Assembly: GCA_965140415.1 (NCBI GenBank)
Contig: OZ223209.1
Location: forward strand, 896,001 to 960,000
Source of the DNA: Myxococcota bacterium
Lineage (GTDB): Bacteria; Myxococcota_A; SURF-8
Length of the DNA: 64,000 nt
Reading direction: 5' to 3'
Within the stretch, counting starts at the first letter, position 1; each line of letters opens with the position of its first letter. The notes below the pieces were generated by a model that was not told the DNA's origin, searched no databases, and saw only the letters and a program-made list of their open reading frames with translations. The position numbers and the translations under genes are program-made. Shown here in pieces: positions 5,923-23,071 of this stretch.

Positions 5923-8900
5923 CTAATAGGTCCGTACGTTGCTCTTATAACCGGTGCAGCCGGTCTGCCCGCTCGTGGCCTGAGAGCCATCGCCGCCGGT
6001 GCGACCACCCGCGCCGCCAGCACCACCGCTTCCGCCGCTGCCACCGGAATAGCTTACATTGATGGTTGCGATAGACGAACTGCTTACCAGCGCCGTGCCG
6101 ATGGATGGACCGCCGCAGCCGCCAGCCGAGCCACCTGCGCCACCGCCGTCACCGCCCGAATTGCCGCCGCCGCCGGTACCGGCTTCGTCACCGCTGGGAT
6201 TGTATCCCGCGCCGCCGCCTTTGCCGACACCGCCGTTTCCACCGGCGCCACCCGACCCGCCGTTACCGCCGTCACCGAGTTCGATATCCGTGTTGGTCAC
6301 TCGAATCGTGGAACCGATCAGCACGATGCCGAAGGAGCCGCCGCCCTGACCGCCACCGGTGCCGGGTAAGCCGCCGCAGCCGCCCGCGCCGCCGCCGCCG
6401 CCGCCGCCGCCGATCTGCGTACCCGACCAGAAGACGCAATACCAGGGGTCGATGTCGGTTCCACCGCCACCGCCGCCACCGCCACCGGTACCGTTTTTAC
6501 CTCGGTAGCCTGAGCTACTAGTGGCACCATACCAGTAACCGCTGGAGAAATAGCCGTCTGAGTCGCTGGAGGTGCTGCCTCGCGATCCGGTTGCTCCGGC
6601 ATATCCGGCTCCGCCGCCACCGCCGTTACCGCCGGTATCGTCACAACCGCTGCATTTGTTTGAACCGGCGGAACCGCCGCCGCCACCGCTGGCGGTATCC
6701 GTTCCTGCCGAGCCTGTTCCTCCACCGCCGCTGCCGCAATCCCAGGAGCCGCCACCGGTGCCTCCATTGGCGCTACCGTAAGGGCTACAATTGACGGTGC
6801 CTCGCGATCCGCCGGAGCCGCCGGAGCCATTACCACCGTTGCTACCGGTGGCTCCGGTAGAACCGCTGGATCCATCGACGCCGCGACCACCGTTTCCGGC
6901 TTGAATCAAGCAGTTATCCACCAACAGGCGCTCCGACAAGGTGTTGTTAACCCACAAAGCGTAGGTGGCTGTACCGCTGCTGGAGTAATTCTTGCCGCGA
7001 ATGGTCAAGCCCTGCAACTTGGTGTCGCTGCTCAAGCCGTTGGCGATGACCGCTCGTGTTGTGCTTCCTACAATTACTGTTTGAATGGACAGATTGCGCG
7101 CCCAGGTGCTGGGATCGTAACCGCCGAACAAGTCTACTCCTGCAACCAGCGTAACGCTGGCGGTATAGGTGCCGCTGCTGATCAGCACATCGCATTTGGG
7201 TGAGCAGCTATTGGCCAGCGTGATGGCATGGGCGATGGTTGCGACCGGATCGCCGAATGCACCACTGTTGGAGTCGCTGCCGCCATTGGCCGGAGTCGCC
7301 ACAAAGATGGATGTCGCCTTGACGCCATCGACGCCGTCACAGTTGGAATCGATGCCGGAGGAATCCGGGGCATCGGTGGATTGCGGTGTCTGCTGTCCGA
7401 CACAGCTTCCATAGCTTCCACCGGAGCAGGTTTTCATGCCGCCGTGACAAATACCTACATCCTCGGTGCCCGACGGACCGGTGTAGCAGTCGGCGGTAAG
7501 GGGATTGCCTGCATCGTCTTCATCGGTGTAACCGTCGCAGTCGTCATCCGAACCGTTGCAGGTCTCGGTTGTGCTGCCGGTGGAGTCGGTACAGACCTGA
7601 TGACTGGACTGGCACAGGTTCACACCTTCCATGCACAAGTCGCTGTCCGGGCCGTCGCAGGCGGTGTTGTACCAGGATTCATCCGAACCGTCCGGGGTGG
7701 CACCGTTGCAGTCGTCGTTGACGCCGTTGCATAGTTCCAGGTTATTGCCGGTCGTGTCGGTACAGGTTTGATTGCCGCCGGAGCAGACGGAAATTCCCTC
7801 CGTGCACAAGTCGCTGTCGGGACCGTCGCAGCTGTTTCCAAGCCAGGATTCATCTGCACCGTCGGCGCTGCTGGGATCGCAGTCATCGTCGATGCCGTTA
7901 CAGATTTCCACGTTATTCCCACTGGTGTCCGAACAGAGTTTGCTGCCGGAGGAACAATAGAAATTGCCTTCCGCACAGAAATCGGAATCCGTACCGTCGC
8001 AGGCATCGCCCAGCCAGGATTCATCCGCGCCGTCTGCGGTGGCGGGGTTACAGTCGTCATCGTTGCCATTGCACAATTCGAGATCGTTGCCGCTGGTGTC
8101 GCTGCAACTCTGGTTACCGTTGGTGCACGAGTAGGTTCCTTCCTTGCACAGATCGCTGTCTGCGCCGTCGCAGGGATCGCCCAACCAGCTGGCATCCGTG
8201 CCGTCGGCGGTGGCGGGATTGCAGTCGTCGTCCACCCCGTTACAGATTTCCGCATTGTTGCCGCTGGTATCGCTGCAACTCTGAGATCCACCGCTACAGG
8301 TATACACGCCTTCGTGGCACAGATCCGTGTCGGAACCGTCGCAGGTATCACCCAGCCAACTGGCATCCGCACCGTCTGCGGTGGCGGGGTTGCAGTCGTC
8401 GTCTGCGCCATTGCACAGATCCAACGTGTTGCCGGTCGCGTCGTTACAGGTTTTGCTGCCACCATCGCAGATGAACGAGCCCTCCTGGCACAGGTCCGTG
8501 TCGGGACCGTCGCAGGGATCGCCCAGCCAGGTGGCGTCGGTACCGTCTGCGGTGGCAGGGTTACAGTCATCGTCTACGCCGTTGCACAGATCCAGCGAAT
8601 CGCCAGTGTTGTCGCCACAGGTTTTGCTTCCACCGCTACAGATGAAGCCGCCTTCCTGGCACAAGTCGCTGTCGGGACCGTCGCAGGGATCACCCAGCCA
8701 ACTGGCATCCGCGCCATCGGCGGTAGCCGGGTTGCAGTCGTCGTCCGAACCGTTGCACAGATCCAGCGTGTCGCCGGTCGTGTCGTTACAGGTCTGGCTG
8801 CCATTGTTACAGATGTAGCTTCCTTCCTTGCACAGATCGCTGTCCGCGCCGTCGCAAGCCGTGCCCAGCCAACTGGCATCCGCACCATCCGGGGTGGCGG

Positions 8901-11900
8901 GGTTACAGTCGTTGTCCAATCCGTCACACAGTTCAAGAGACGAGGTGCTGGTATCGGTACAGGTCTGACTGCCTCCGCTACAGACGTATACGCCCTCCTC
9001 GCAGAGATCATCGTCCGGGCCGTCGCATACGTCGTTCAACCAGCTTTCCTGGGAGCCGTCTGCGGTGGCCGGGTTGCAGTCGTCGTCGGTGCCGTTGCAA
9101 AGTTCCACGTTGTCGGCGGTTGTATCGTTACAGGTCTGGTTGCCATCCTGACAGATGTATTCGCCTTCCTTGCACAAATCCGTATCCACGCCGTCGCAGG
9201 TTGTTCCCAGCCAGGTTGCATCTGCGCCGTCAGCAGTGGCGGGGTTGCAGTCGTCGTCTACGCCGTTGCAGGATTCAACATTATTCGACGTGGCGTCGGT
9301 GCAGGTTTTGACCGAATCCGTACAGGTGTAGCTGCCTTCCTCGCACAGATCCGTGTCGGGACCGTCGCAGGAATCGCCGAACCAGCTTTCATCCCGGCCA
9401 TCCAGGGTGGCGGGGTTGCAGTCGTCATCGTTGCCGTTACAGAGTTCCAGATTGTCACCGCTAGTGTCCGAACAGGTTTTCGAGCCAAACGCGCATTCGA
9501 ACACGCCTTCCAGGCACAGATCGGCGTCGTTGCCGTCGCAGGCCGTACCAAGCCAGGTTTCATCGGCGCCGTCGGGAGTGGCGGGGTTGCAGTCGTCATC
9601 CACGCCATTGCATAGCTCCGCACCGAAACCGGGATCATCCACACACTGCTGACCGCCGCTGATGCACTGATAGCTGCCGTCCTCGCACAAATCCGCATCG
9701 TTTCCGTCGCAGGCCGTGCCGAACCAGGCTTCATCCGCGCCATCGGAGGTGGCGGGGTTGCAGTCGTCGTCCTGCCCATTGCACAGATCCAAAGTGTCCG
9801 CGCTGTTGTCGTTGCAGGTTTTGGCGGCACCCGAACAGATATACACACCCTCCTCACACAGATCCGAGTCGTTACCATCACAGAGATCGCCTAGCCAGGT
9901 TGCATCCGCACCGTCGGCGGTGGCGGGGTTACAGTCGTTGTCCAAGCCGTCGCAAAGTTCGGGATTTTCTCCGCTGGTATCCGAGCAGCTCTGCCCGCCA
10001 TCGACGCACTGGAAAAAGCCTTCTTCGCACAAATCGCTGTCGCTTCCATCGCAGGCCGTGCCCAGCCAGCTCTCGTGTGCACCGTCCGGCGTGATGGGAT
10101 TGCAGTCGTCGTCCTGGCCGTTACACAAATCGGGGGTGTCGCCGCTCTCGTCATTACAGGTTTTTGCGGCACCCGAGCAGACGTACACTCCTTCCTGGCA
10201 CAGATCCGCATCGTTACCGTCGCAGGCATCGCCAAGCCAGGTTGCGTCGGCGCCGTCGGCGGTAGCGGGGTTGCAGTCGTTGTCCAGCCCGTCGCACAAT
10301 TCCAGGTTCGCGCCGGTCGTGTCCGAGCAACTCTGCCCGCCATCGACGCAGCGCAGGAAACCTTCTTCGCACAAATCGCTGTCCTCGCCGTCGCAGGCGT
10401 CACCCAACCAGCTTTCGTCGGCTCCGTCCGGGGTGTAGGGATTGCAGTCGTCGTCCTGCCCGTTGCAGAGATCCGGTGTGTCGTCGCTGGCATCGTTGCA
10501 GGTTTTCACACTGTCCTGGCAGGTAAAGTTCCCCTCGTTGCACAAGTCGCTATCGGGTCCATCGCAGGGAGTGTCATACCAGGCTTCATGCTGGCCATCG
10601 ATGGTGGCGGGGTTGCAGTCGTTGTCCTCGCCGTCGCAGAGATCCAGCAGGTTGCCGGTGGTATCCGAGCAGCTTTGCGCTGCATCGACGCATTGGAAAA
10701 TTCCCTCTTCGCACAGATCGGTATCTTCGCCGTCGCAGGCATTGCCAAGCCACTCTTCATCGTTGCCGTCGGCTGTAAAGGGATTGCAGTCGTCGTCTTC
10801 GCCGTTACACAATTCCAGGTTGTTTGACGTCGTATCGTCGCAGGTTTTGTCTCCGTTTACACACTGGAAAACGCCTTCCTCGCACAAGTCGGCGTCTTCG
10901 CCGTCGCAGGGATCGCCCAGCCAAACGGCGTCCGCGCCATCCGCCGTATTCGGGTTGCAGTCGTTATCCTGGCCATCGCAGTATTCCAGGTTGTCGGTGG
11001 TATTGTCGCTACAGATCTGCGCACTTTCGGAGCACAGGAAAATTCCTTCCGCGCATAAGTCGGCGTCCTCGCCATCGCATTCGTTGCCGTACCAGTCTTC
11101 ATCTCGTCCGTCCAGCGTAAAGACGTTGCAGTCGTTATCCACGCCGTCGCAGAGTTCCAGATTGTCGCCGGTATTATCGGAGCAGCTCTGTTGCGCGTCG
11201 ATACAGGAGTAAATCCCTTCCTTGCAGTTATCCGAATCCTCGCCGTCGCAATCCGTGCCGTACCAGCTTTCATCCGATCCATCGGGTGTGTCGGGGTTGC
11301 AGTCGTTATCCTGACCATCGCAGATGTCGCGGGTGTTGTCGGTAGTGTCGGTACAGACCTGATTGCCTCCCTGACAGATGTACAGACCCTCTTCGCACAG
11401 ATCGGTGTCCGTTCCGTCGCAGGCGGTCTGCAACCAGCTTTCACCCGAGCCATCTGCGGTCAATGGGTTGCAGTCGTCGTCTTCGCCGTTGCAAAGGTCC
11501 AGGTTGTTTTCGCTGGTGTCGGTACAGACCTGGCTGCCATCCTGGCAGATATACTGTCCCTCTTCGCACAGATCGGTGTCCGTTCCGTCGCAGGCGGTGG
11601 AGAGCCAGCTTTCATGCGTGCCATCGGGAGTATCCGGGTTGCAGTCGTCATCTTCGCCATTGCATAGATCCGGCGTATCCGAGGAAATATCGGTACAGAT
11701 CTGCTCACCGAGTTCACAGGTGAACACGCCTTCCTCGCACAAATCCGCGTCGTTGCCGTCGCAGGGTTGGCCGATCCATTCCAGTGGATCGCCGACGCAG
11801 GCGCCATCTTCGCCGCAACGGTCGTTGTCCGTGCAGGGATCGCCATCGTCGCAGCCTTCGCCGACGTTTGCCGGCAGCGCGATGCAGGAATCGTGCTCTT

Positions 11901-14900
11901 CATCACAATCGGGAACCTGACATTGCGGCTCAACAATGGCTTCGGAGCAGTCGCGCGGCTGCGTGTCGGTGCAATCACCCGCCGAGCAGGCATCATCCAC
12001 GGTGCAGAATAGACCGTCATCACACAGTGCGCCGTCTTCGATATCGCTCCAGCTTGTTGGATCGAAGAAAGGCAGGCAGATCCGGCAGACATTATCCGGG
12101 TTCGAGTCGCGATATTCATAGCAATCATGATCGATCAGGCATTGGTTCTCTTCGATCTGATGACCGCACATCCCCTGTTCACACACATTAAACGTACACG
12201 TATTGCCATCATCCTGACACTCCAGACACCCAGAGCCGCAGTGCATGGGATCATCGTCGGGATAACATTGTTCGCCGCAGCGGTGGTAGCCTTGCAGACA
12301 TTCAAAGTCGCAGAATCCATAGGGGCAGATGGCCAGTGCATAGTCGGGCGGCGTGCAGTTGCTGGTTACGTTCGCACCGTCGTCGGTTTCTCCGTTGCAG
12401 TCGTTGTCCAGATCGTCGCAGATTTCCACGCCGTAGTTGCTGATATCGCAGGGATATTCGCAGTCGCTGGGATCGTCGTCCAGATCCCACCAACCTTCCG
12501 GGCAGGGAACGCCGCGCCCGGCCAGTTCGTAATCGCTGGTTGTGGAAAGATACGAGTTGCTGGTGATCTGCACGGTGGCATTGAAATCGAAGGGTTCTTC
12601 GCTGCTTTCGCCTTCGGGAACGACCGGCAAAAATGCGATATCAACCGCAAGCGTATTGGCTTCGCCGGGATACAACTCAAAGGGCAAACCTTGTTCTGGC
12701 GGCAGAATCACAAAGACATCCGAATAGAATCCGGGCAGTACTTCCAGCGAATCGACGACCAATACGCCTAAAATTCCGGAGTTGCGCAGGCGGATGCGCT
12801 GCACGTTCTGGGCGGCGAAGTGCGTATCGGGAAATTCCAAAGGCGATACGGGCGCCACGCTCAATCGCTGGTCCGTACCGATTCCGAACAACCCAATGGC
12901 TACCTGGGGAGAGAAGGGATCGTCTCCGGTGATCAGGAAACCGCCGATGTCCTCGCCCGGATAGGTAATCGGGCTGTAGCGCAGGGTCACTCCGACGTGA
13001 CCGCCGGCGGCGATCTGGATCGAACCGGTATCTTCGAAAGAGAATTCCTCTAACGTGGAATTGGTGGTGATCTGCAAGGACTGAATGGTCAACACGGCAT
13101 CGCCTTGATTGGCCAGATCCAGGACACGCTCTTCCGTGCTGTTCAAACCCACTTCCCCGAAATCGATTTGATCCACGAAATCGGGATTGTCGCGTTCGGT
13201 CACGACCAGCACCGGTGCGATACCCAAGCCGCCTACGGCGATATCCTGCGAAACCGTGACCAGATCGTCGGTCACGATATGAATCAATGCGCTGTAATTC
13301 TGACGCGCCAGCGGCGCGAAGGTGACGTGCAGTTCGTGTGTGCCTTCGCTTTCCAGGACCACATTTTCCAGCACATCGGTTTCATCGAATGAGAAGACGT
13401 CGCTGGTTTCCGCAAATCCGATCGTTACCAGCGTTACCGGCAAGGAACCAGTATTGGTCAATGTCAATGTGCGCGTAACCTGTTGACTGACGCGCGTTTC
13501 CGGGAACTGCAACGCTTCCGGATCGGCCAGCAACGAGGAAGGCACCGCTTCTCCACGCAGATTGACAATGAAGTTCTGCGAACCGAAGGTGTTGTTGTCG
13601 ATTCGGATCTGTCCGCTGTGTTCACCCACCGTCATCGTGTTGAATGTCACCGGCAGCGCCGCATGTTGTCCCGCTTCCAACGCGATCTCGCCATTGGCGA
13701 AAGCGGTCAGATCGAGGCTGAATGCCTCTGAAGAGGTATCCACCATTTCGGGTGGTTGCACGATCAACATACCACCGCCGGAGTTGGACAGGGTCAACTC
13801 GATCGTTACCGGCACACCCGCTCGCTGCTCACCGAAATTCAAAGTGTTCTGTGCCTGTAGTGTTTCCACTTTCAGAACGGGAGCAACACCGGTGCAACTC
13901 AATTCCACGACATAGGTGGATTCGTCGATATCGTTGCTTTCCACGATCAACCGGTCGCTAAATTCGCCCATTTGCGGCGGATGGCACAAAACCGTGATTT
14001 CCAGTTCCTGTCCTTGGCCGATGCGTAGCGGCAATGTGCTTGCGTTGACCGCAAAGACTTCGGAAGATTCGGATTCCAGATACAGACCATTGATGCGCAG
14101 CACGGCGTTGTCGTTTTCACCGCCTGGCAGGTTTTTAAGAATCAAGGTGCGCTCGGCAGCGGGATCTCCAACGACGACATTATGGAAATCCAACGGATTG
14201 GGGTTGGCGTCGATATCCGCCGTTCCCTTGTATTGGGACCGTAACTGCACCCGGAAGGGACCGTCGGGATCATCGGAGCTGATGACCAGTTCCGCCTCGT
14301 CGGGACCGGCGTCGAGTGGTTTGTAGCTGATATCCACCTGGATCGATTCGGCAATACCTGTGATCATCGCCGGGAAATCCGGGGGTTGGATCAGGCTGAA
14401 TTCAGTGCTGGTGGAAACGATTTCCATACTCGTAACGGTGAGTGTCCGTCCCTCGCAGAGATTGGAGATGTTGACTGTGCGCACAACCTCGGTGTTATAA
14501 GGGACATAGCCGAAATCCAGGATCTGCTCTGCCAGAATTTCCGGACCCAGTTCGCAGTCGCCCACCGGTTTGTCGCCATCGACGGTGCCGTCATCATCAC
14601 CGCCGCCATCGCCATCGGGAACGTCGCCATCCGTACCGCTACAGGTGCAATCGTCGCCGCAAGCCTCACCTACGGGGCAATCCGTATCGCGGCTGCACTC
14701 CTCGCCTTCCGAACAGGGATTCTGATCGCTGGGGATGCAGTTTCCTTGATGACAAACCGAATCGCTGGGGCAATCCAGATCCAGCAGACAACCCGTTCCG
14801 CCGGATTCCTGATCGGTATCCGTGTCGCCGTCGGTATCCGCCACGCCGGAATCGTCGGCACAAGCCGATAGCAACCCGATTGCAAGCATCACCGCCAAAA

Positions 14901-14934
14901 CCAGCATGAACCATCGATTGATAGAGCTTTTCAT
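5923..14934 (-). CDS. Giant (~3003 aa) surface lipoprotein: six choice-of-anchor-D/ASH-like Ig domains, 25 x 57-aa Cys/Asp repeats (MopE-like putative metal-binding motif), DUF1565-like segment and Gly-rich C-terminus
   Basis: ATG at 14934 with RBS AAGGGA gives MKSSINRW...LLSAC (lipobox). Six 'LDFGxV...xLxN' Ig-like units. ELCNGxDDDC repeats. SIFVA...GSDSNSG...PVATIAHAI...GTY. Gly-rich tail. The ORF track's start at 15078 overlaps the predicted promoter. Confidence 0.88.
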   Translation of the reverse strand: MKSSINRWFMLVLAVMLAIGLLSACADDSGVADTDGDTDTDQESGGTGCLLDLDCPSDSVCHQGNCIPSDQNPCSEGEECSRDTDCPVGEACGDDCTCSGTDGDVPDGDGGGDDDGTVDGDKPVGDCELGPEILAEQILDFGYVPYNTEVVRTVNISNLCEGRTLTVTSMEIVSTSTEFSLIQPPDFPAMITGIAESIQVDISYKPLDAGPDEAELVISSDDPDGPFRVQLRSQYKGTADIDANPNPLDFHNVVVGDPAAERTLILKNLPGGENDNAVLRINGLYLESESSEVFAVNASTLPLRIGQGQELEITVLCHPPQMGEFSDRLIVESNDIDESTYVVELSCTGVAPVLKVETLQAQNTLNFGEQRAGVPVTIELTLSNSGGGMLIVQPPEMVDTSSEAFSLDLTAFANGEIALEAGQHAALPVTFNTMTVGEHSGQIRIDNNTFGSQNFIVNLRGEAVPSSLLADPEALQFPETRVSQQVTRTLTLTNTGSLPVTLVTIGFAETSDVFSFDETDVLENVVLESEGTHELHVTFAPLARQNYSALIHIVTDDLVTVSQDIAVGGLGIAPVLVVTERDNPDFVDQIDFGEVGLNSTEERVLDLANQGDAVLTIQSLQITTNSTLEEFSFEDTGSIQIAAGGHVGVTLRYSPITYPGEDIGGFLITGDDPFSPQVAIGLFGIGTDQRLSVAPVSPLEFPDTHFAAQNVQRIRLRNSGILGVLVVDSLEVLPGFYSDVFVILPPEQGLPFELYPGEANTLAVDIAFLPVVPEGESSEEPFDFNATVQITSNSYLSTTSDYELAGRGVPCPEGWWDLDDDPSDCEYPCDISNYGVEICDDLDNDCNGETDDGANVTSNCTPPDYALAICPYGFCDFECLQGYHRCGEQCYPDDDPMHCGSGCLECQDDGNTCTFNVCEQGMCGHQIEENQCLIDHDCYEYRDSNPDNVCRICLPFFDPTSWSDIEDGALCDDGLFCTVDDACSAGDCTDTQPRDCSEAIVEPQCQVPDCDEEHDSCIALPANVGEGCDDGDPCTDNDRCGEDGACVGDPLEWIGQPCDGNDADLCEEGVFTCELGEQICTDISSDTPDLCNGEDDDCNPDTPDGTHESWLSTACDGTDTDLCEEGQYICQDGSQVCTDTSENNLDLCNGEDDDCNPLTADGSGESWLQTACDGTDTDLCEEGLYICQGGNQVCTDTTDNTRDICDGQDNDCNPDTPDGSDESWYGTDCDGEDSDNCKEGIYSCIDAQQSCSDNTGDNLELCDGVDNDCNVFTLDGRDEDWYGNECDGEDADLCAEGIFLCSESAQICSDNTTDNLEYCDGQDNDCNPNTADGADAVWLGDPCDGEDADLCEEGVFQCVNGDKTCDDTTSNNLELCNGEDDDCNPFTADGNDEEWLGNACDGEDTDLCEEGIFQCVDAAQSCSDTTGNLLDLCDGEDNDCNPATIDGQHEAWYDTPCDGPDSDLCNEGNFTCQDSVKTCNDASDDTPDLCNGQDDDCNPYTPDGADESWLGDACDGEDSDLCEEGFLRCVDGGQSCSDTTGANLELCDGLDNDCNPATADGADATWLGDACDGNDADLCQEGVYVCSGAAKTCNDESGDTPDLCNGQDDDCNPITPDGAHESWLGTACDGSDSDLCEEGFFQCVDGGQSCSDTSGENPELCDGLDNDCNPATADGADATWLGDLCDGNDSDLCEEGVYICSGAAKTCNDNSADTLDLCNGQDDDCNPATSDGADEAWFGTACDGNDADLCEDGSYQCISGGQQCVDDPGFGAELCNGVDDDCNPATPDGADETWLGTACDGNDADLCLEGVFECAFGSKTCSDTSGDNLELCNGNDDDCNPATLDGRDESWFGDSCDGPDTDLCEEGSYTCTDSVKTCTDATSNNVESCNGVDDDCNPATADGADATWLGTTCDGVDTDLCKEGEYICQDGNQTCNDTTADNVELCNGTDDDCNPATADGSQESWLNDVCDGPDDDLCEEGVYVCSGGSQTCTDTSTSSLELCDGLDNDCNPATPDGADASWLGTACDGADSDLCKEGSYICNNGSQTCNDTTGDTLDLCNGSDDDCNPATADGADASWLGDPCDGPDSDLCQEGGFICSGGSKTCGDNTGDSLDLCNGVDDDCNPATADGTDATWLGDPCDGPDTDLCQEGSFICDGGSKTCNDATGNTLDLCNGADDDCNPATADGADASWLGDTCDGSDTDLCHEGVYTCSGGSQSCSDTSGNNAEICNGVDDDCNPATADGTDASWLGDPCDGADSDLCKEGTYSCTNGNQSCSDTSGNDLELCNGNDDDCNPATADGADESWLGDACDGTDSDFCAEGNFYCSSGSKLCSDTSGNNVEICNGIDDDCDPSSADGADESWLGNSCDGPDSDLCTEGISVCSGGNQTCTDTTGNNLELCNGVNDDCNGATPDGSDESWYNTACDGPDSDLCMEGVNLCQSSHQVCTDSTGSTTETCNGSDDDCDGYTDEDDAGNPLTADCYTGPSGTEDVGICHGGMKTCSGGSYGSCVGQQTPQSTDAPDSSGIDSNCDGVDGVKATSIFVATPANGGSDSNSGAFGDPVATIAHAITLANSCSPKCDVLISSGTYTASVTLVAGVDLFGGYDPSTWARNLSIQTVIVGSTTRAVIANGLSSDTKLQGLTIRGKNYSSSGTATYALWVNNTLSERLLVDNCLIQAGNGGRGVDGSSGSTGATGSNGGNGSGGSGGSRGTVNCSPYGSANGGTGGGSWDCGSGGGGTGSAGTDTASGGGGGSAGSNKCSGCDDTGGNGGGGGAGYAGATGSRGSTSSDSDGYFSSGYWYGATSSSGYRGKNGTGGGGGGGGGTDIDPWYCVFWSGTQIGGGGGGGGAGGCGGLPGTGGGQGGGSFGIVLIGSTIRVTNTDIELGDGGNGGSGGAGGNGGVGKGGGAGYNPSGDEAGTGGGGNSGGDGGGAGGSAGGCGGPSIGTALVSSSSIATINVSYSGGSGGSGGAGGAGGRTGGDGSQATSGQTGCTGYKSNVRTY
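7504..11778 (-). repeat. Intragenic tandem array of 25 x 171-bp (57-aa) units
   Basis: The first Trp codon is at 11778 and the 25th at 7674, a difference of 4104 = 24 x 171. Consensus WLGxxCDGxDxDLCxEGxxxCxxGxxxCxDxxGxxxELCNGxDDDCNPATADGADxx. Confidence 0.92.
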
Positions 14935-15063
14935 GGGATATCCCTTTTTATTGCAGTGGCAATGATGGAACGGCGCAACCGCCCGAAGCACCCCACCCGG
15001 GCCGCTTGCCGATCCAACCTTCATGACCGTTTCGTTTGTACTAATTTCTAACTCACACTTCCT

Positions 15064-15093
15064 ATTATGTTGTGCCAACTAGCCTTTTGTCAA
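15064..15093 (-). promoter_or_regulatory. Sigma70-type promoter for the giant lipoprotein gene
   Basis: Minus strand TTGACA-N18-CATAAT, about 130 nt upstream of the ATG at 14934. Confidence 0.6.
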
Positions 15094-15760: not shown

Positions 15761-18502
15761 TCAATCGCAGACCGGCACTAGCGAGACCGTATCCAGCGCG
15801 ATATTGTAAGCGTTGGATACGGAATTCTTGCTCATCACTTTCACGATCACGCGATGGGTTCCGGCTTTCAAGTTTTGGTTAGGATAAACCGCCATCAACG
15901 CTTCGGAACCCGTTCCACGATACAAATCGATGGGATCTCGGCCATAGGTTTCTTCTTCCAAAGCGCGATTCAATGGGCTGTCCATGAAGACCCGCACCAT
16001 TGCGGAATTGGCCTGCTGATGGAATCCCAGTTGCAATTCACCAGTGAAATCATGCTCCAACTGCAAGGTAAGCACCAACTGGTCACCCACTTCAAATCCA
16101 TGACCTAGCAGCAGTGAATCATCCGACGAGCCCGATACGTCGATCATTTCCTGATCCTGCGGCGGCAGGCAAAGATCGTGATTTACAACCTCTTCCGCCT
16201 CCCATTCCATGCCGCTATCCAGGCAATCCACTACAGGTGGAGCCGTTTCGCAGGCATCGCCAGGGAAGCTACCGTCGTCGTTGGCCTGATCGGCATTGGG
16301 TGTGTTGATGCAGTTGTCCGTGCAATAAAAGACCTGTCCCGGCAGACAGTAGGCGCTGCCAAGATCGGAAATCCCGTCGCGGTCACGGTCGAACTGGGGA
16401 GACGCGCACCGGAAGCCCAGATCTTCGGCGCTGTTCATCTGCACGACGCTGCGGCGGAAACCGGAGAGGATCGGCCTTGGACCATCCTGATACGAGCCGC
16501 CGCGTATCATGCGCACACCGCCCGAGCGTGTCAGCGGATTGGTGGCGTCGGTGGAATCGTAGGCGGCGTAAGCATCGAAAACCCATTCGGCGACATTTCC
16601 GGCCAGATCGAACACCCCGAAATAGCTGCGGCCATCCTTGGTCTGGTTCGAGCCGTCGTAGCTCCCCACCGGCATCGGATGCGACTTGCAGGGATCGTCG
16701 TCTACGCCATCGCCGTTCTGGTCGCCATAGTTTGTTAACTTGCAGGAAGGTGCATCATCGCCCCAGGGATAATCACGCCCATCCGGGTTGCTGTTGGGGC
16801 CGCGCGCGCCATATTCCCATTCCGCTTCGCTTAGCAGGCGCTTGCCGGTATATCGGCAATAGGCTTCCGCCGCCGACCAACAGATCTGAGTGACCGGCCA
16901 GAGTTCATGACCCACTTCGGGCACGGCGCCGAATTCGCCATAGGTCGTACCACAGGCGTTGTCGGTATGATTTTTCCATTGCGGCAGCGCCGTTACGAAA
17001 CTGTAATAGTCCTGCTCCGTAACTTCGGTGCGATCCACCCAGTAACCTTGGTTTAGAAGCGTGTTGTGAGTCGGGCGGGCGTTATCGCAACTCATTGCCT
17101 CGCAGCTTTCCTGGGACAGTCCCTGGAGGAAGCTGTTGGGTCGGATGTACACCATTTCACTCGTGCTGTTGCCGTTGCCCATGACGTTGGTTGCACAGAA
17201 ACCGAGTTCATCTAAGGGCCAGTCCATACAGTCCGGGTTCACCCCGCGACAGTAGCCACCTTTGCATTGATCGCTTTGCGTACCGGGTAGACCGTCGTTG
17301 CAACTCATTCCATCCTGCACCGGAGAATAGGTACAGGCATGTTGTTCCTGGCTCCATTGGTCCAGGGTGCATACGTTGTCGTCATTACAGACCGGAAGAA
17401 CGTCATCCTCGACTTCATCTCCGTCGATGAGCTCATCCGCATCGCCGTCGCCATCACCGTCGAAATCGCCATCGGGCGACTCCCACAAGCCCATCAACAC
17501 GCTTTCCAGATGTTCCAGAACCAAAACCAGTTCGGCATCGTTGGGACAGATGAAATCGATTAAGCGATCCGTTTCGAAGTCCGTAATATCCTGACCGAAG
17601 AAATACAGGTGGCCGCTCCATCCGTCGCTACAGGGACGCCCGTTGAAGCAGTAATCCAATGACTGCAAATGTCCGACGAGGTAATTCACCAGACTGTCGG
17701 CCTGATCTGTGGACAATACTCCCTGCTGCTGCTCCGTGCCACTATTCGGTGTTGTAAGTTGCATCCAGTAACTACGATCCGGGTCAAGGCGGAAGACCAG
17801 TTCGTTTTCCAGCGGGTTGTTCCGGCGATAGTCGAGCCTGGGCATTTGTTCGTAATCGCCCGGACCGCTGCATTCGCCTTCCCAGTCCAGATCGTCATCC
17901 AAATCGCCGTCTACGGTTGATTCATCCGAATCGCCGGGCAACTCATCGCCATCGGCCTGCATGAAGTGTACGATGTACTGATCCAGCCACAGATGCAGAT
18001 CATCCAGCAGCAACAACAGGCGATCATCAGCGCTGCAACGCCAGCTAAGCTCCGCTTCCGGTGTTCCTCTGAAAATCAGCGAACCGGCCAGACAAGCCCC
18101 CGTATCCACTTCATAATCGCCGGTCAGTTGTGGTAGATGTTCTCCCAGCAGTTCCCGCAGAGCCTGAATCGCTGCCGGTCCCAGTTCACCTTGCTTTTGT
18201 TCGGTGCGCACCGTCATACCGGTGAAATTATAATCTGCCCGGTAGGTTCCATCGGCTTGCAAATTGAGATCCAGACCCAGTTTTTCCGGAATGGTTGTGG
18301 AGAGTTCAACCAGCGCTTCCGTTGCGGCATCCGCAGAATCATTATCACCATCGGGAATGTAAATATCACCGTCCGAGATCTGTGTGTCACTGTCCCCGAT
18401 ATGGTATACGTTCGTTCCGGAATTGCAGGCGTATGATGCCGCCAGCACCATCATCAGGAAAAAACCGGATGCTATCGTTTTAGCCAGGACTTCATTTTGC
18501 AT
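15761..18502 (-). CDS. Multidomain lipoprotein with an FGE-sulfatase (SUMF1/EgtB/PvdO-like) domain, Cys-rich and TSP3-like motifs and a C-terminal beta-sandwich
   Basis: Lipobox-like SYAC. FGE motifs DRTEVT, PVTQICWSAAEAYC, KRLLSEAEWEYGARG, YPWG, DLAGNVAEW, RGGS and GFRC. DNCINTPNADQANDD. RBS GGAG before the ATG at 18502. Confidence 0.85.
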   Translation of the reverse strand: MQNEVLAKTIASGFFLMMVLAASYACNSGTNVYHIGDSDTQISDGDIYIPDGDNDSADAATEALVELSTTIPEKLGLDLNLQADGTYRADYNFTGMTVRTEQKQGELGPAAIQALRELLGEHLPQLTGDYEVDTGACLAGSLIFRGTPEAELSWRCSADDRLLLLLDDLHLWLDQYIVHFMQADGDELPGDSDESTVDGDLDDDLDWEGECSGPGDYEQMPRLDYRRNNPLENELVFRLDPDRSYWMQLTTPNSGTEQQQGVLSTDQADSLVNYLVGHLQSLDYCFNGRPCSDGWSGHLYFFGQDITDFETDRLIDFICPNDAELVLVLEHLESVLMGLWESPDGDFDGDGDGDADELIDGDEVEDDVLPVCNDDNVCTLDQWSQEQHACTYSPVQDGMSCNDGLPGTQSDQCKGGYCRGVNPDCMDWPLDELGFCATNVMGNGNSTSEMVYIRPNSFLQGLSQESCEAMSCDNARPTHNTLLNQGYWVDRTEVTEQDYYSFVTALPQWKNHTDNACGTTYGEFGAVPEVGHELWPVTQICWSAAEAYCRYTGKRLLSEAEWEYGARGPNSNPDGRDYPWGDDAPSCKLTNYGDQNGDGVDDDPCKSHPMPVGSYDGSNQTKDGRSYFGVFDLAGNVAEWVFDAYAAYDSTDATNPLTRSGGVRMIRGGSYQDGPRPILSGFRRSVVQMNSAEDLGFRCASPQFDRDRDGISDLGSAYCLPGQVFYCTDNCINTPNADQANDDGSFPGDACETAPPVVDCLDSGMEWEAEEVVNHDLCLPPQDQEMIDVSGSSDDSLLLGHGFEVGDQLVLTLQLEHDFTGELQLGFHQQANSAMVRVFMDSPLNRALEEETYGRDPIDLYRGTGSEALMAVYPNQNLKAGTHRVIVKVMSKNSVSNAYNIALDTVSLVPVCD

Positions 18503-18634
18503 GTCGCACTCCCTGTGCATGATTGTCCGATACGACATTTTACCATTTCCCCGCAACGAAGTGAAACTATTACAGAGAATCCCTCGCCATAGGGTACATC
18601 ACAAGATAGTGCATTGATTCTTTAGGTTTACCAG

Positions 18635-18727
18635 CGCTCATCCCGAGTGTCGTCCGAAGGGCGGAGTATCGAGGGATTTTCGCTATGGTTCGATAGAATT
18701 GGTTTTGCCAATCACTCACCATGAGCG
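18635..18727. repeat. REP-like palindromic element with two internal hairpins
   Basis: CGCTCATCCCGAGT...GTATCGAGGGA and TGGTTCGATAG...ACTCACCATGAGCG. The outer arms CGCTCAT/ATGAGCG pair. Internal stems are CGTCC-GAA-GGGCG and ATTGG-TTTTG-CCAAT. Confidence 0.6.
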
Positions 18728-18850
18728 GGATCCTTGAAAATCGCAATCATTTGTGATGCACCCTGCCAGGCTCCCACATCTGAAATTGACTTTACGTTTC
18801 AAGGGCTTTCGGATACAGTAAGCGCTGTTGCAACAAGGAATGACGTAGTT

Positions 18851-20947
18851 ATGCGCAGAGATTTGAACGATTTCGACACGTTTTCGGCTTTTATTGCGGA
18901 TTTAATCCGTGAACGAAGTCCGTTGGAATCCGTGCGCGTTTCTCCCCAGGCAGACGGATCGTTGCGCTTCGATATCCAGGTGAAATCTCTCGATTTCACT
19001 TTCTTCTGGAGTGAAGATTCTCCGATCACAGGAATCTGCAACCCGTTAAGAGACGGCTATCTCTGCTGCAACGCAGAGCCGAACGAGTCCGATTTGCTTC
19101 GCAAAGCCTGGACCGTTAAATTGACAGCCTTTCTTTCGGAAAAAATCAACCGCTTGCTCGATGGCGAACCGCCCGCCCTGCTGCAATGGCGAAACCGACA
19201 TCATCAAACGATTTCCTGGGGAATCCGACTTTTTCCGTGGTTGTTTTCCGGGTTGATCAAGAAGGGGCGCACCCGCTTCGGGGAATATACCCTGATTGAC
19301 CTCAATGAGTATGAAGGATACCTGAATCTTGTTTTCGAATCGAGACAAGCTCGGGTAGCATTTCGGCTTTCACCAAAAGGAACGGTCAAAGGAAAACCGG
19401 TGTGCTCGCGTGGTCCGCTTGAATTGCATATCATGGAGGATACACGCAGTCATAATGATCTATTGGAGCCTTTCCATGCGATTGAGCAATTCATGGGGTA
19501 CGTACTGGCTCGCTGCCTGCCGAAATCCTTTAGTCTGATCTTCGAAGGCAACGATGTACCTGCCGGGTTGCGGTCACCGGAAGTTCAACTCAATTTTCTC
19601 AATACGGAGCCGCCGGTCGGTTCCTCCATTTATGAAACGATTTTCACTACTTCACCGGATATCGTGACCATTTCGGCCTGCGATCATGAATGCTTCAATA
19701 TGTTTTCTTTTATCGCCGCGCCGCGTGAAAGTTGGCTGACGGTCATGCCTTGGTCGCTTAAACCGCGACTGGATTTCGTCGATCATGGACACAACGTGCT
19801 GCTCTCGAATCGAAGCATTATCATGGGCTCCGATGAAGTGGAGCATTCCCTGGCGCAATTGGACCACCTGAATCCATCGCCGGAAATGGCGATTTTCGTT
19901 GAATCCTGTATTCCGCGTATGATCGGTCTGGACCTGGAAGGTCCGGTCAATCGTTTTCAGAGGAAAAACACCGTTCCTCTCATTCCGTACAAGGTAACGC
20001 TTTCTGAAAAGCAGTATCTGGACACGTTCAGAGAGTTTTGGGTGCATTGCTACGAACAAATGGCCGATAAAGCCGCCGCACCGGAGTCGGATGTTGTCTC
20101 CCTGTTTGGAATCACAGACGATACAGGCGATTTGGTGTATCAACTGCTTGAACAAAACGGCGTTCGCTGCCAATCGAATCTGTTCCCGCTGCTCGACGTT
20201 CCCTCCCTTCGGAATCTACCGAAAAGCTCTCTGCTTGTGGTGAATGAATGGGAGTACATCGAGGTTCTGTTTTCCGATCTGATACAAAAACTGAATCGCC
20301 CGGTGTTGCGCCTGCCACTGCCATACGGTATTGAAGGTTCACTTTTATTCGTGCGCGAAATCGTGAAAAGGCTGCATGATCGGGATCTCATGTCGCTGGA
20401 TCAAAACGAGCAACTGTTGCAATACCAACAGGAGTTTCAAAAGGAGAAGGAGCGTATCGAAGGCGAGCGGGTAGCCATCATTCTGAAAATGGAGGATTTA
20501 CCCGAGCAACTGCTGCCCGGGCGTCGCTTCGGTCTGCCGTTTATCGATTTGCTTCACGAACTTGGTTTGGCAGTCGATTGTCTGGTGTATGTGCCTGATG
20601 CGACTTCAAGCGACCTCGTAGAGCCTTGTAGGGCAGCAGGGTTGAAGTTGGAAAACGGGGATCGTTGCACTGTGTTTCGCCGTTACGACGACCTGACGGA
20701 ACTGCTTCACGACGGTGAATTCAAGCTGGTATACAGTGAGGCGTTTCGGGATCGCAGGATCACGAGTGCAGGGAAGTTTCCAATCAATCTGAAGGCGTTC
20801 CAACCCGGATTCTCGGGAGCCGTAGCGACAGCCAGGCGCATTGCCAAAGCGCTTGAAATGAACTTCTACAAAAATCACGGTTATCGTCTGACTTCGCCGG
20901 TCGCCCATCTGCGTCCATCTGAAAAGGAGGAGCGCAATGGAGAATAA
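18851..20947 (+). CDS. Divergent nitrogenase component-1-like oxidoreductase subunit (NifD/BchN-like) with a large unknown N-terminal extension
   Basis: The C-terminal ~440 aa shows component-1 signatures: ACDHEC, LSNRSIIMGS, IFVESCIPRMIGLDL, LPLPYGIEGSLLFVREI, EGERVAI and FQPGFSGAVATARRI. It overlaps the next gene. The start is either TTG 18734 or ATG 18851 (AAGGA upstream). Confidence 0.7.
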   Translation: MRRDLNDFDTFSAFIADLIRERSPLESVRVSPQADGSLRFDIQVKSLDFTFFWSEDSPITGICNPLRDGYLCCNAEPNESDLLRKAWTVKLTAFLSEKINRLLDGEPPALLQWRNRHHQTISWGIRLFPWLFSGLIKKGRTRFGEYTLIDLNEYEGYLNLVFESRQARVAFRLSPKGTVKGKPVCSRGPLELHIMEDTRSHNDLLEPFHAIEQFMGYVLARCLPKSFSLIFEGNDVPAGLRSPEVQLNFLNTEPPVGSSIYETIFTTSPDIVTISACDHECFNMFSFIAAPRESWLTVMPWSLKPRLDFVDHGHNVLLSNRSIIMGSDEVEHSLAQLDHLNPSPEMAIFVESCIPRMIGLDLEGPVNRFQRKNTVPLIPYKVTLSEKQYLDTFREFWVHCYEQMADKAAAPESDVVSLFGITDDTGDLVYQLLEQNGVRCQSNLFPLLDVPSLRNLPKSSLLVVNEWEYIEVLFSDLIQKLNRPVLRLPLPYGIEGSLLFVREIVKRLHDRDLMSLDQNEQLLQYQQEFQKEKERIEGERVAIILKMEDLPEQLLPGRRFGLPFIDLLHELGLAVDCLVYVPDATSSDLVEPCRAAGLKLENGDRCTVFRRYDDLTELLHDGEFKLVYSEAFRDRRITSAGKFPINLKAFQPGFSGAVATARRIAKALEMNFYKNHGYRLTSPVAHLRPSEKEERNGE

Positions 20948-22253
20948 CAACCGCAAAAATCCTTTGGGAACGCCGATTAACATCGTTGCTCCCTACGTCG
21001 ATGGCGCATACCTGGCTACCAATGCGATATCGGATGCCTACCTGATCTATCATGCTCACGATTGCGGCTATTTCAAAGCGGAAAAAATTGTCGGGCACCA
21101 TGATCTGTTCTCGGATCTATTGAGATACGAGCGGATAGGGAGGGTAGTGCGCAGTAATATCGGCTCGAAGGAATTCGTGTTGGGCGGAGAGGACAGGCTC
21201 TCGCGCCGCATACGGCAAATCACCGAAACTTATCGCTGTGAAGTGCTGTTCGTAGTCAGTTCAAACGTCTCGATTCTTGCCGGCGAAGACCTGCGTCCGC
21301 ATCTGGTTGAGATGGAAGGGAAAACCGGCGTACCGATTGTCACTCTGCCTGAGCGTCACGTTTACAAGGATTACCTGACCGGCTACCTGGATACTGTCAA
21401 GGCGCTGCTTGAACGGGTGCAGTTCAATTCAGACGAGGCGTCGCACGGCGTTGCGATTACAGGTTTTGTGTTCGAACGCAATGAAGCGGATACTGCGGCG
21501 GATATAGAAGAAATCAAATCGATGTTGGCCGCGATGGGCGTTGAAGTGTCGGCGGTGTTTTTGGATGGCGGAAGAGCGCAACGCTGGAAAGAACTTCCGC
21601 CACCGGAGGCGGTGATCGACATCGCTCACGGAGAGGGAGGCGGAGCCACGCTTGCCAATCGCTATGACATTCCCTGCCTGGAGATCGGGGCGCCAATCGG
21701 AATTGAAGGAACAAAGAAATGGCTTGAGGAAGTCGCGGCTTGGTTGAACGCAGAGGCCAAGGCGAAGTCCTATATCGAATGGCAACTGGAAGGGCTGGTC
21801 GATCAACTCGAATGGATCATTCCCCGGTATTTTCTGGGGCGAGGTGCAATTCTGTTTGCCGATCGTCTTAAAATGGTTGCGCTTGCAGATTTTCTTGAAG
21901 AGATTGGGCTGACTGTACTGGGAGCAGAATGCACGTCGCATGAATTCGAAGACGATGCGAAAAACCTTCTCGCCCAGCGCTATGGCAGGCTTCCCGTGAT
22001 GGCCATGGAACTACGCGAATATATTACCGATAACATGAAGAGGGACCGGTTGCATATCGGTCTGGGTACCAGTTTGTTCAACCAGAACGCTGCCGCGCAG
22101 GGACTGCCCTTCGTCGAGATCGGTTATCCTTCGAATTTCCACCATGCTCTTTATCCAAGACCTACATTCGGCTTTGGCGGAGTCCGGGTGCTTATTGAGC
22201 GAATGATCAACGCGATCAATGCCACCGAAATTTATTATGGGAGTAACCGATGA
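20937..22253 (+). CDS. Nitrogenase component-1-like oxidoreductase subunit (NifK/NifE/BchB-like)
   Basis: DGAYLATNAISDAYLIYHAHDC, EFVLGGEDRL, ILAGEDL, DIEEIKSMLAAMG, APIGIEGTKKWLEEVA, PFVEIGYP and PTFGFGG are typical Oxidored_nitro motifs. RBS AAGGAGGAG. Confidence 0.85.
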   Translation: MENNNRKNPLGTPINIVAPYVDGAYLATNAISDAYLIYHAHDCGYFKAEKIVGHHDLFSDLLRYERIGRVVRSNIGSKEFVLGGEDRLSRRIRQITETYRCEVLFVVSSNVSILAGEDLRPHLVEMEGKTGVPIVTLPERHVYKDYLTGYLDTVKALLERVQFNSDEASHGVAITGFVFERNEADTAADIEEIKSMLAAMGVEVSAVFLDGGRAQRWKELPPPEAVIDIAHGEGGGATLANRYDIPCLEIGAPIGIEGTKKWLEEVAAWLNAEAKAKSYIEWQLEGLVDQLEWIIPRYFLGRGAILFADRLKMVALADFLEEIGLTVLGAECTSHEFEDDAKNLLAQRYGRLPVMAMELREYITDNMKRDRLHIGLGTSLFNQNAAAQGLPFVEIGYPSNFHHALYPRPTFGFGGVRVLIERMINAINATEIYYGSNR

Positions 22254-23071
22254 GAATGATTGCATTTTACGGAAAAGGCGGCATCGGAAAATCGACCCTC
22301 GTTTCTGCGCTTTCCACCTTGTTCGCCAAGAATGGGCATCGAGTGCTTCAGTTCGGTTGCGATCCGAAGAGCGATTCCTGCTTCACACTTTTGGACGGCC
22401 CAATCACCACCGTAATGGAAGAGTGGACAGAGCGCGGCGAGCAGGATTTGACTTTGGAGCACTGCTTGATGACGACACCCAACGGTGTCGATTGCCTTGA
22501 AGTGGGCGGTCCGCAACCGGGAAGCGGATGTGCGGGGCGAGGTATCACGAAGACTTTGGAAATGATAGGAAGCCCCACGGAGTTGAAGAATCGGTACGAC
22601 ATCGTCCTTTTCGATGTGCTGGGCGACGTGGTTTGTGGTGGTTTTTCCGCACCGATGCGTGAAGGCTACGCACAAGAAGTGTACATCGTTACTTCAGGCG
22701 AATTTCGATCGCTGTATGCAGCCAACAATATCGCTTTCGGAGTGAAGAAGAACGCCATCAACGGAACGCGGCTGGGAGGTTTGATCGCCAACTTGCGCAA
22801 TGTTCCGGAAGAAGTGGAAAAAATCGAACAACTGGCAAAGTTGCTAAAAACTCGCGTAGCCGGTGTCATCCCGCGTGACGATGCCATAGGAAAAGCCGAG
22901 TTGATGCGACGCCCGGTCGTCGATACCGACCCGAACTGTCCGGCTACCAAGGCGCTGATGAAGCTCTCCGAAACGATTTCCGCTATCGAGCAAAGCCAGC
23001 TCGTCGTTCCTGCACCATTGCCTCGCATCGAATTCGAAAATCTATTCTTCAATACCAGGTCAACGAGTTAG
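22250..23071 (+). CDS. nifH: NifH-family Fe protein (nitrogenase reductase-like ATPase); probably not part of a canonical N2-fixing nitrogenase
   Basis: YGKGGIGKST P-loop, GCDPKSDS, GGPQPGSGCAGRG (Cys94, Arg97), DVLGDVVCGGF (Cys129) and YAANNI. ATGA overlap with the upstream gene. Confidence 0.93.
   Translation: MRMIAFYGKGGIGKSTLVSALSTLFAKNGHRVLQFGCDPKSDSCFTLLDGPITTVMEEWTERGEQDLTLEHCLMTTPNGVDCLEVGGPQPGSGCAGRGITKTLEMIGSPTELKNRYDIVLFDVLGDVVCGGFSAPMREGYAQEVYIVTSGEFRSLYAANNIAFGVKKNAINGTRLGGLIANLRNVPEEVEKIEQLAKLLKTRVAGVIPRDDAIGKAELMRRPVVDTDPNCPATKALMKLSETISAIEQSQLVVPAPLPRIEFENLFFNTRSTS

Follow-up and report, generated by a model that had tools for sequence, protein, structure and literature searches.

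A D-K-H operon of the Group VI nitrogenase-like family in a Myxococcota genome, probably encoding an ATP-dependent reductase

We describe a three-gene nitrogenase-like operon from a Myxococcota bacterium. It lies in a stretch of 64 kb, referred to below as the window, which covers positions 896001-960000 of the single 5.98-Mb contig (OZ223209.1) of this genome (G000:C1; completeness 93.7%). The operon is complete and probably encodes an active two-component ATP-dependent reductase of Group VI (NflD-NflK-NflH), and its sequences indicate a real, probably functional member of this named family. The enzyme is almost certainly not a nitrogenase, because it retains only three of the six P-cluster cysteines and neither of the FeMo-cofactor ligands, and because the genome holds no NifB and no component-1 gene other than two Nfl-type pairs. 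Within Group VI the operon is a distinct variant, with the gene order D-K-H, a CxxxC pair and an extra N-terminal domain in D, a NifH-proximal Fe protein and no accessory genes nearby. An earlier sequence-only reading had proposed a stand-alone reductase acting on a substrate other than N2, which the absence of NifB and NifEN from the genome and the missing cofactor ligands support. Beyond that reading we find that the family has already been named, that the genome carries a second, paralogous cluster, and that a large N-terminal domain brings the first protein to 737 or 698 aa. The operon does not solve the function of Group VI, and tetrapyrrole reduction is a published guess.

The three genes and their place in Group VI

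Three open reading frames (ORFs) were found on the + strand at 18734-20947 (737 aa, TTG start), 20937-22253 (438 aa) and 22250-23071 (273 aa), which corresponds to contig positions 914,734-919,071. The D and K genes overlap by 11 nt (20937-20947), the ATGA at 22250-22253 combines the stop of K with the start of H, and a strong Shine-Dalgarno sequence (AAGGAGG) lies 5' of the K gene; with these overlaps and good ribosome-binding sites the three genes are translationally coupled. The D gene most likely starts at the ATG at 18851, which is Met40 of the ORF and gives a protein of 698 aa, because three observations all point there: the database gene call (P0001) begins at this codon, alignments of full-length D homologues in a HMMER scan begin within their residues 1-15 and within query residues 40-53, and an AAGGA is located 9-13 nt 5' of it. 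The features of the operon, all on the + strand, are as follows, with D residues numbered as stated.

18557..18850, +, upstream intergenic region; expected promoter location, none recognised
18851..20947, +, D-like (NflD-type) catalytic subunit; 698 aa from the probable start, ORF open from TTG 18734
18851..19615, +, N-terminal extra domain of D; approximately residues 1-255 of the 698-aa form, no Pfam family
19679..19693, +, CxxxC motif CDHEC of D; Cys316/Cys320 in the 737-aa numbering, Cys277/Cys281 in the 698-aa numbering
19907..19909, +, D Cys392 (737-aa) or Cys353 (698-aa); aligns with NifD Cys154 and BchN Cys112
20937..22253, +, K-like (NflK-type) catalytic subunit; 438 aa, from ORF, Pfam and family-K clade
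21063..21065, +, K Cys43; aligns with NifK Cys95 and BchB Asp36
22250..23071, +, NifH-type Fe protein (NflH-type); 273 aa, Fer4_NifH
22271..22294, +, P-loop GKGGIGKS of the Fe protein (residues 8-15)
22529..22531, +, Fe protein Cys94 in GCAGRG; equivalent of NifH Cys97, by motif
22634..22636, +, Fe protein Cys129 in the switch II motif DVLGDVVCGGF; equivalent of NifH Cys132

In Pfam, Oxidored_nitro matched ORF1 at residues 356-707 only (E 3.4e-15), leaving the first ~350 residues without a match, and spanned the full length of ORF2 (E 1.3e-54), while Fer4_NifH spanned the full length of ORF3 (E 3.9e-81). The Fe protein has intact GKGGIGKS, DPKSDS (residues 38-43), GCAGRG and DVLGDVVCGGF motifs and both cluster cysteines. 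The ORFs, Pfam matches and motifs thus agree with the earlier reading of three overlapping genes in D-like/K-like/H order with an intact Fe protein, and its assignment of a component-1 fold to the first ORF is borne out by the Oxidored_nitro match and by a structural model of D whose C-terminal part matches NifD, MarD and NifE folds. None of the three proteins reached an NCBIfam equivalog cut-off. The bit scores of ORF3 against the respective cut-offs were 286.5/394.35 for nifH, 272.6/402 for CfbC, 196.5/345 for BchL and 160.9/331 for BchX, and those of the component-1 proteins were 19.8/654 for nifD, 27.8/427 for nifK, 28.6/420 for BchN, 89.6/490 for BchB and 31.4/268.4 for CfbD. The Fe protein shares 46.5% identity with a cyanobacterial NifH and 38% with a BchL; it had been described as NifH/CfbC-like rather than BchL-like, with which both the scores and the H trees are in accordance.

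Group VI was defined on a NifH phylogeny as NifH paralogues of groundwater Elusimicrobia, with homologues in two Gracilibacteria and 14 aquatic Myxococcales genomes and with GWA2_69_24 named as a carrier of the new group (Meheust et al. 2020). According to the same paper its loci have 0-13 adjacent radical SAM genes, which are typical and not obligatory, and tetrapyrrole reduction was proposed from the radical SAM/HemN_C neighbours. Section 7 of a recent review (Chem Rev 2026) names the proteins NflH, NflD and NflK, and the review describes the group as having no accompanying NifB and keeping at most four of the six P-cluster cysteines. The sequence-only reading had pointed to a divergent paralogue clade in Elusimicrobia and some myxobacteria; the 2020 paper substantiates it, and by their phylogeny the operon D and K belong to it.

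To place D and K we used a FastTree tree of the component-1 proteins (138 rows, 496 columns) with 11 Nif and Bch references, the NifD/K/E/N sequences being from a cyanobacterial and a clostridial plasmid and BchN/B/Y/Z from a Sulfitobacter plasmid. A branch with support 100 unites all 64 family D rows, and another with support 95 does so for all 63 of family K, with the Nif and Bch references outside in both cases. The D and K proteins of Elusimicrobia Group VI, including those of GWA2_69_24, are in the same two clades as the operon D and K, which by sequence is the clustering expected of Group VI. Within these clades the operon proteins are found in an early-branching subclade of 7 (D) and 6 (K) rows (supports 99 and 100), together with L015 (G006) and L026-L030; here and below, L-numbers denote related loci (85 compared), G-numbers genomes and P-numbers protein representatives. 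The Fe protein was placed in trees of 84 rows (LG+G4) and 48 rows (PMSF), where the operon H forms a subclade with L015, L026, L028 and L046 (support 99).

Several features of Group VI were also found in the operon, namely the Fe-protein motifs with intact H cysteines, the absence of equivalents of NifD residues 275 and 442 (the FeMo-cofactor ligands), three of the six P-cluster cysteines, and a genome without NifB; as is common in Group VI, this genome has more than one copy. The operon differs from the published Group VI systems in having no radical SAM gene within 100 kb rather than the typical radical-SAM-rich neighbourhood, in its gene order (D-K-H, against H-D-K or an H-D fusion plus K), in the CxxxC pair of D, and in an Fe protein that branches closer to the NifH references than do those of Elusimicrobia. 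It further differs in the ~250-residue N-terminal domain of D, which matched no Elusimicrobia locus in a jackhmmer search of the 85 loci.

Metal sites, subunit pairing and the N-terminal domain of D

The ligand positions were read from an L-INS-i alignment with NifD/K/E/N and BchN/B/Y/Z, for which 14 family D and 14 family K rows are shown (737-aa numbering is used for D unless stated). At the position of NifD Cys62, NifK Cys70 and BchN Cys26 there is no cysteine in any of the 14 D or 14 K rows. The position of NifD Cys88, NifK Cys95 and BchB Asp36 holds a cysteine in all 14 rows of both families: Cys320 in the operon D, which aligns with BchN Cys51 also, and Cys43 in the operon K, the sole invariant cysteine of K (16/16 rows). 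At NifD Cys154 and NifK Cys153 a cysteine is found in every D row (Cys392 in the operon, invariant in a separate D alignment too) and in none of the K rows (Asn in the operon). Three of the six P-cluster positions are consequently kept, and both FeMo-cofactor ligands are absent: the equivalent of NifD Cys275 is a Glu in the operon D, and the segment of His442 is deleted in 14/14 family D rows. An additional cysteine, Cys316, is located four residues before the Cys88 equivalent in all five operon-type D rows (the operon, L015, L026, L027 and L028) and in none of the nine others; in the separate D alignment it was noted for P0018-P0025 as well. This pattern, along with the predicted interface described below, fits one [4Fe-4S] cluster bridging D and K and held 3+1 as in DPOR.

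The pairing of D and K was modelled with D residues 255-698 (698-aa numbering) and the K protein, and judged by a mark with a pass rate of 58/80 for solved complexes and 2/110 for mismatched pairs. The model scored 0.72 and the best of three controls 0.00; the runs agreed in at least 70% of contacts, with a partner pLDDT of at least 84. The confident part of the predicted interface includes D residues 278-284 and 353-354 (698-aa numbering) and K residues 41-43. These stretches hold three of the four putative ligand cysteines, and the fourth, Cys277 in the same numbering, is adjacent. The model supports binding of D to K, though its passing the mark may reflect likeness to the solved NifDK and BchNB complexes.

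The AlphaFold2 model of D, from 115 sequences, had a mean pLDDT of 92.6 and a pTM of 0.86. Its C-terminal ~440 residues match the NifD, MarD and NifE folds (Foldseek E ~1e-15, target-normalised TM 0.6) at 15-16% identity. The N-terminal domain (residue 1 to ~255) is modelled as two lobes, each a curved sheet plus a long helix, and the domain modelled alone gave a pLDDT of 87.9 and a pTM of 0.87. A Foldseek search of the domain against the PDB gave TM values of at most 0.21 and one match, DynU16, at E 6.8e-4. Among 48,161 chains compared by VIA-align the highest score was Z 7.9, for the SMP domain of Mdm12, which is noise level for a tool whose best score for unmatched queries is typically 7-8. 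For lobe 1 the noise-level matches were of the TULIP type (BPI, Z 6.3; SPLUNC1, juvenile-hormone-binding protein and Der f 7), and these together with Aha1 scored Z 5-6.3 over residues 4-113 only; for lobe 2 the SRPBCC-type DynU16 scored Z 4.8, with residues 114-240 barely covered. In the ESM Atlas the best score was 0.77, to unnamed viral clusters, which gave no lead. A degenerate NifH, suggested by the H-D fusions described below, was considered for this domain and rejected, as D has no Fer4_NifH match and the sheet-plus-long-helix lobes are not a P-loop alpha/beta fold.

A profile of the N-terminal domain matched 60 of the 149 other listed D representatives. Among the 85 loci the domain was found only in the operon type, three Myxococcales D-K-H loci, L071 and the second cluster of this genome. 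At least one representative, the 958-aa P0039, is hit by the NifH query as well as by the N-domain profile; it has its D-core match at residues 382-938, and so appears to be a triple fusion with the N-domain between H and the D core. Fusions of H and D were also seen among the loci: 17 of the 85 have ORFs of 750-880 aa with a complete NifH-like domain followed by the D core, usually with K next (e.g. L032:25-2460, L049:7626-9971, L051:7685-9985 and L081:7752-10004), and a fusion of this kind would imply a permanently tethered Fe protein. The main texts of the 2020 paper and the 2026 review have no "fusion" or "N-terminal extension" wording for this group; the supplementary figures S4-S6 and Dataset 2 of the former may show fusions, gene maps or this lineage.

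Proposed chemistry and competing explanations

In the mechanism we propose, H would form a homodimer in which Cys94 and Cys129 of both chains carry a single [4Fe-4S] cluster, and on MgATP binding and hydrolysis it would pass single low-potential electrons to D/K. D and K would pair as NifDK or BchNB do, and the interface would hold a single simple Fe-S cluster, in all likelihood [4Fe-4S]; in the operon subclade its ligands would be D Cys316, Cys320 and Cys392 and K Cys43, a 3+1 asymmetry that the NB cluster of DPOR also has. As there would be no P-cluster and no FeMo-cofactor-type cluster, the substrate would be organic and not N2. By analogy with DPOR, COR and CfbCD the most likely chemistry would be stepwise reduction of a conjugated C=C system, and the two-lobed N-terminal domain of D might capture or present a hydrophobic substrate. 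Going further, we speculate that this domain is a TULIP/SRPBCC-like capture module for a hydrophobic ligand of lipid, isoprenoid or polyketide type, and that the Myxococcota-type enzymes reduce a lipid-like metabolite in place of a tetrapyrrole, although we consider this unlikely. If it were true, the nitrogenase superfamily would gain a new class of substrate, and it would come with a minimal, self-sufficient and transferable three-gene cassette.

The tetrapyrrole substrate suggested by Meheust et al. 2020 is a narrower form of the same explanation, and we see it as a possible but rather unlikely one. The characterised simple-cluster relatives, DPOR, COR and CfbCD, all reduce tetrapyrroles as the cited texts describe them. 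DPOR (BchL/BchNB, ChlL/ChlNB; Group V) shares the two-component ATP-driven plan and has the single inter-subunit 3+1 [4Fe-4S] cluster that the sequence here suggests. The ligand on the K or B side is at the NifK Cys95 position in both, as Asp in BchB and Cys in the operon K, while on the D side the operon would use the Cys88 and Cys154 positions plus the new cysteine four residues upstream, against Cys26, Cys51 and Cys112 in BchN. The BchL, BchN and BchB scores of the operon are nevertheless far below the cut-offs, and there are no bch genes in the genome. CfbCD (Group IV-B) is likewise a simple-cluster enzyme, and the CfbC score of the operon Fe protein (272.6 bits) is close to its nifH score (286.5 bits); however, CfbD works without a K partner whereas the operon has distinct D and K, the cfbABE/mcr context is absent, and the CfbC and CfbD cut-offs are not reached. 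The genome could make tetrapyrrole precursors, with two matches each to HEM4 (uroporphyrinogen-III synthase) and TP_methylase, one pair being fused in a 522-aa frame, but as HEM4 was found in 12 and TP_methylase in 14 of 14 control genomes their presence says little. B12-binding radical SAM genes are neighbours of related loci (9 of 85), including two of the six operon-type loci outside G000 (L026 and L028). At the operon itself the radical SAM/HemN_C neighbours of the published argument are missing, and no tetrapyrrole gene was seen in the 64-kb window or beside the G006 orthologue; moreover, ISR and MAR, as published, show that nitrogenase-like enzymes reach beyond tetrapyrroles.

These two (Groups IV-C and IV-F) are, like the enzyme proposed here, bacterial nitrogenase-like reductases that do not act on N2, and they raise the question of whether the operon might cleave C-S bonds of organosulfur compounds for sulfur assimilation in the manner of MarHDK or IsrHDK. 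Two chains of Mar, 9d9u_A and 9fmg_A, are the best solved-structure matches of the D profile (E 1.8e-31) and the second and third of the K profile, MarD being the best sequence match of D among solved structures, and the Fe protein is on the NifH/Group IV side of the H trees. We still hold this to be very unlikely: MAR is described in the literature as having clusters of P and L type and depending on NifB or MarB, while the genome has no NifB and D lacks the ligands for such clusters. ISR is described with cysteines at the NifD Cys88 and NifK Cys70, Cys95 and Cys153 positions, a pattern different from that of the operon; D and K do not join the Nif-type references in the component-1 tree, and no sulfur-metabolism or transport gene was found flanking the operon by the Pfam scans. 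A decaying or non-catalytic remnant, i.e. a horizontally transferred three-gene cassette whose D has drifted too far or which has a structural or regulatory role only, is in our view highly improbable. D is only 15-16% identical to NifD over the fold and sits on the longest split of the component-1 tree, the operon type is present in 3 of 401 genomes, and the G006 cassette lies between transposase genes with its D as 166- and 557-aa ORFs; yet in the present operon none of the three reading frames is interrupted and their starts are coupled, even distant homologues keep the ligand cysteines and many further residues unchanged, D is modelled with very high confidence, and the G+C content (51.5%) equals that of the genome (52.4%). 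As for a cryptic N2-fixing nitrogenase, as claimed for the Group IV-A Nfa, we dismiss it almost entirely. The Mo-, V- and Fe-nitrogenases (Groups I-III) share the plan of an Fe protein with D/K, the core fold of D and the P-loop and switch motifs of H, so that a general family resemblance and an intact Fe protein with a nifH score of 286.5 bits speak for it. That score is under the 394.35 cut-off, the P-cluster ligand set is half gone and the FeMo-cofactor ligands wholly so, and the genome has no NifB, NifEN, NifUS or NifV and no Nif-type second component-1 set.

Returning to the Group VI reductase, a number of points weigh against this interpretation too. In the H trees the operon protein groups with four NifH references (supports 96-98), apart from the clade of 23 Elusimicrobia rows in which the GWA2_69_24 protein is found; a tree constrained to unite the 42 locus-derived H proteins in one clade loses 20 log-likelihood units, and the AU test does not reject it (p-AU 0.116). 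CfbCD, MarHDK, IsrHDK and NfaHDK sequences are absent from the trees, and the probable placement relative to Group IV is taken from profile scores only. The fourth putative ligand, Cys316, is limited to the operon-type subclade, with no cysteine there in the other subclades, and the four-cysteine reading may thus not be extendable to the whole family. The structural matches of the N-terminal domain are at noise level, so the role suggested for it is a guess. The genome encodes a haem-copper oxidase, hence the organism is not a strict anaerobe, and in such an organism an O2-labile enzyme would need regulation, of which none was identified. Lastly, the review's account of Group VI gives no biochemically characterised member, and no paper characterising the group was listed in our full-text searches. 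With Group VI lacking such a member, D and K do not cluster within a group of known function, which would have spoken against the sequence-only reading.

What the uncharacterised nitrogenase-like systems do has been called one of the greatest challenges of the field (Chem Rev 2026). The present operon is a favourable test case, being a complete three-gene unit with no radical SAM or accessory genes nearby in a closed 6-Mb genome, with an orthologue that looks transferable between genomes and with an explicit ligand prediction of three D cysteines and one K cysteine. The additional, confidently folded domain of D may hold substrate. If the enzyme can be made, a compound co-purifying with D/K would tell which class of substrate is used by a family found in 67 of the 401 genomes sampled from the phylum.

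Relatives, the second cluster and genome context

The K protein has 12 clusters of relatives at 40-51% identity, the next being an Elusimicrobiota protein at 26%. A pattern scan with the K alignment over one genome per species matched 96 stretches, 76 of which were confirmed, in 73 loci. These are mostly from metagenome-assembled genomes of Elusimicrobia, GWA2_69_24 and GWA2_66_18 among them; further loci carry the labels Myxococcales, Polyangia, Bradymonadales or "Deltaproteobacteria", and Binatia, Oligoflexales, Spirochaetes, a Desulfobacter and two DPANN archaea contribute a few. A word-indexed search with D found only itself and one 36% relative, and the full HMMER scan found 531 representatives (50% identity) at E <= 0.001, with 330 at E <= 1e-10. 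For the Fe protein 49 clusters at 287-384 bits were seen among the matches listed (P0168-P0216); below this close set the scores are at most 258 bits, where true NifH proteins begin. The named members of the close relatives are labelled "Myxococcota bacterium" or "Deltaproteobacteria bacterium", names that make membership of this organism in Myxococcota probable.

A K-like match (E <= 1e-10) was found in 67 of the 401 genomes sampled from the phylum, about one in six, and a K-like gene at E <= 0.001 in all five other genomes of the same family. The operon type is rare by comparison, as besides G000 only G006 (42%) and G043 (39%) have it in this sample. The G006 orthologue (L108/L109, G006:C1:1106000-1139999), the closest to the operon in a genome, is bracketed on both sides by transposase genes of ISL3, DDE_Tnp_1, IS4/5-type and rve families, and its D gene reads as a 166-aa and a 557-aa ORF that join at L108:15609, being either split or frameshifted. 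Radical SAM genes are the commonest neighbours of the related loci, one sequence cluster being present in 28 of 85. We also observed by BLAST that SGNH/GDSL-type hydrolase-like genes stand beside clusters of different subclades in five of the 85 loci (L013:12806-13996; L026:6819-7766; L053:11564-12697; L032:3752-5917; L049:11892-14150), a recurrence that hints at ester or acyl chemistry in the pathway.

The second nitrogenase-like cluster of the genome is located 137 kb away on the minus strand (G000:C1:1056380-1060679; L013:8380-12679) in H-D-K order, encoding an H of 280 aa, a D of 723 aa and a K of 430 aa. Its D carries the same N-terminal domain as the operon D. Identities between the two clusters are 40% for H, 28% for K and 22% for D, the two being old paralogues, and it is the second-cluster type, not the operon type, that is common to the other genomes of the same family. 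An SGNH/AlgX-like gene is found directly upstream of this cluster. Further along the same locus (L013:17699-19897, G000:C1:1065699-1067897) there is a 732-aa fusion of a class-V aminotransferase (cysteine desulfurase-like) domain with AIR-synthase-related domains (SelD/ThiL-type).

Genome-wide, Oxidored_nitro gave four matches and full-length NifH-type proteins two, all of them in the operon or its paralogous cluster, so that no NifEN or other component-1 gene was found in the genome beyond these two Nfl-type pairs. The best match to NifB in the genome was 29.1 bits against a cut-off of 343.65. Radical_SAM matches are unusually many (94, of which 90 are above cut-off), and none lies between 807,973 and 1,249,771, that is, none within 100 kb of either cluster. 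The radical SAM genes flanking the Myxococcales D-K-H loci have homologues of 51-60% identity elsewhere in G000. Two regions holding these radical SAM homologues were inspected for the idea of dispersed partners, and their contexts were unrelated: one has a sulfate symporter, an LPG-synthase-like membrane protein and an epimerase, the other an aminotransferase and DNA polymerase III tau. At G000:C1:4884000-4890401 six or more Radical_SAM matches lie close together, including one 940-aa frame with three.

The neighbours of the operon were typed by Pfam scans of the larger ORFs across the 64 kb. On its 5' side and the opposite strand is a secreted FGE-sulfatase-domain protein (15761-18556, minus), and on its 3' side a PAS histidine kinase and a receiver-PAS-GGDEF protein; elsewhere the window holds sensor kinases, an S41 protease, TPR proteins, nuoE-N genes, a transposase, dprA and topA. 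These larger ORFs include no nif accessory, bch/chl, cfb, molybdate-transport or radical SAM gene, in line with the sequence-only reading, which had also seen no radical SAM gene flanking the operon and no sigma-54 site upstream of it; both observations extend to the 100-kb range given above and to a scan of 18557-18850, where TGGCAC-N5-TTGC had no match with up to two mismatches. The nearest sigma-54-like match is GG-less with two mismatches (18504-18518), and the whole window has 58 such matches against 72.9 expected. The sigma-70-like scan of 18557-18850 gave no + strand site, the whole region having four sites against 4.6 expected, and nothing in the promoter and terminator scans exceeded shuffles. 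The G+C content of the operon relative to that of the genome gave no compositional sign of recent transfer.

The PAS kinase, the GGDEF regulator and the upstream FGE-sulfatase protein were rejected as partners, as they are not kept beside the orthologues. FGE-sulfatase-domain proteins are found near both nitrogenase-like clusters (15761-18556 minus in the window, and L013:2973-4532), which is probably chance given 37 matches genome-wide and orthologous loci without them. On the far side of the upstream gene a 3051-aa ORF with HYDIN/ASH-type Ig-like domains occupies 5923-15078 (minus), a stretch with a G+C of 0.59-0.62 against ~0.52 elsewhere in the window. Finally, a DUF4372 + DDE_Tnp_1 transposase gene (54264-55442, minus) was observed directly after nuoL/M/N (48887-54114).

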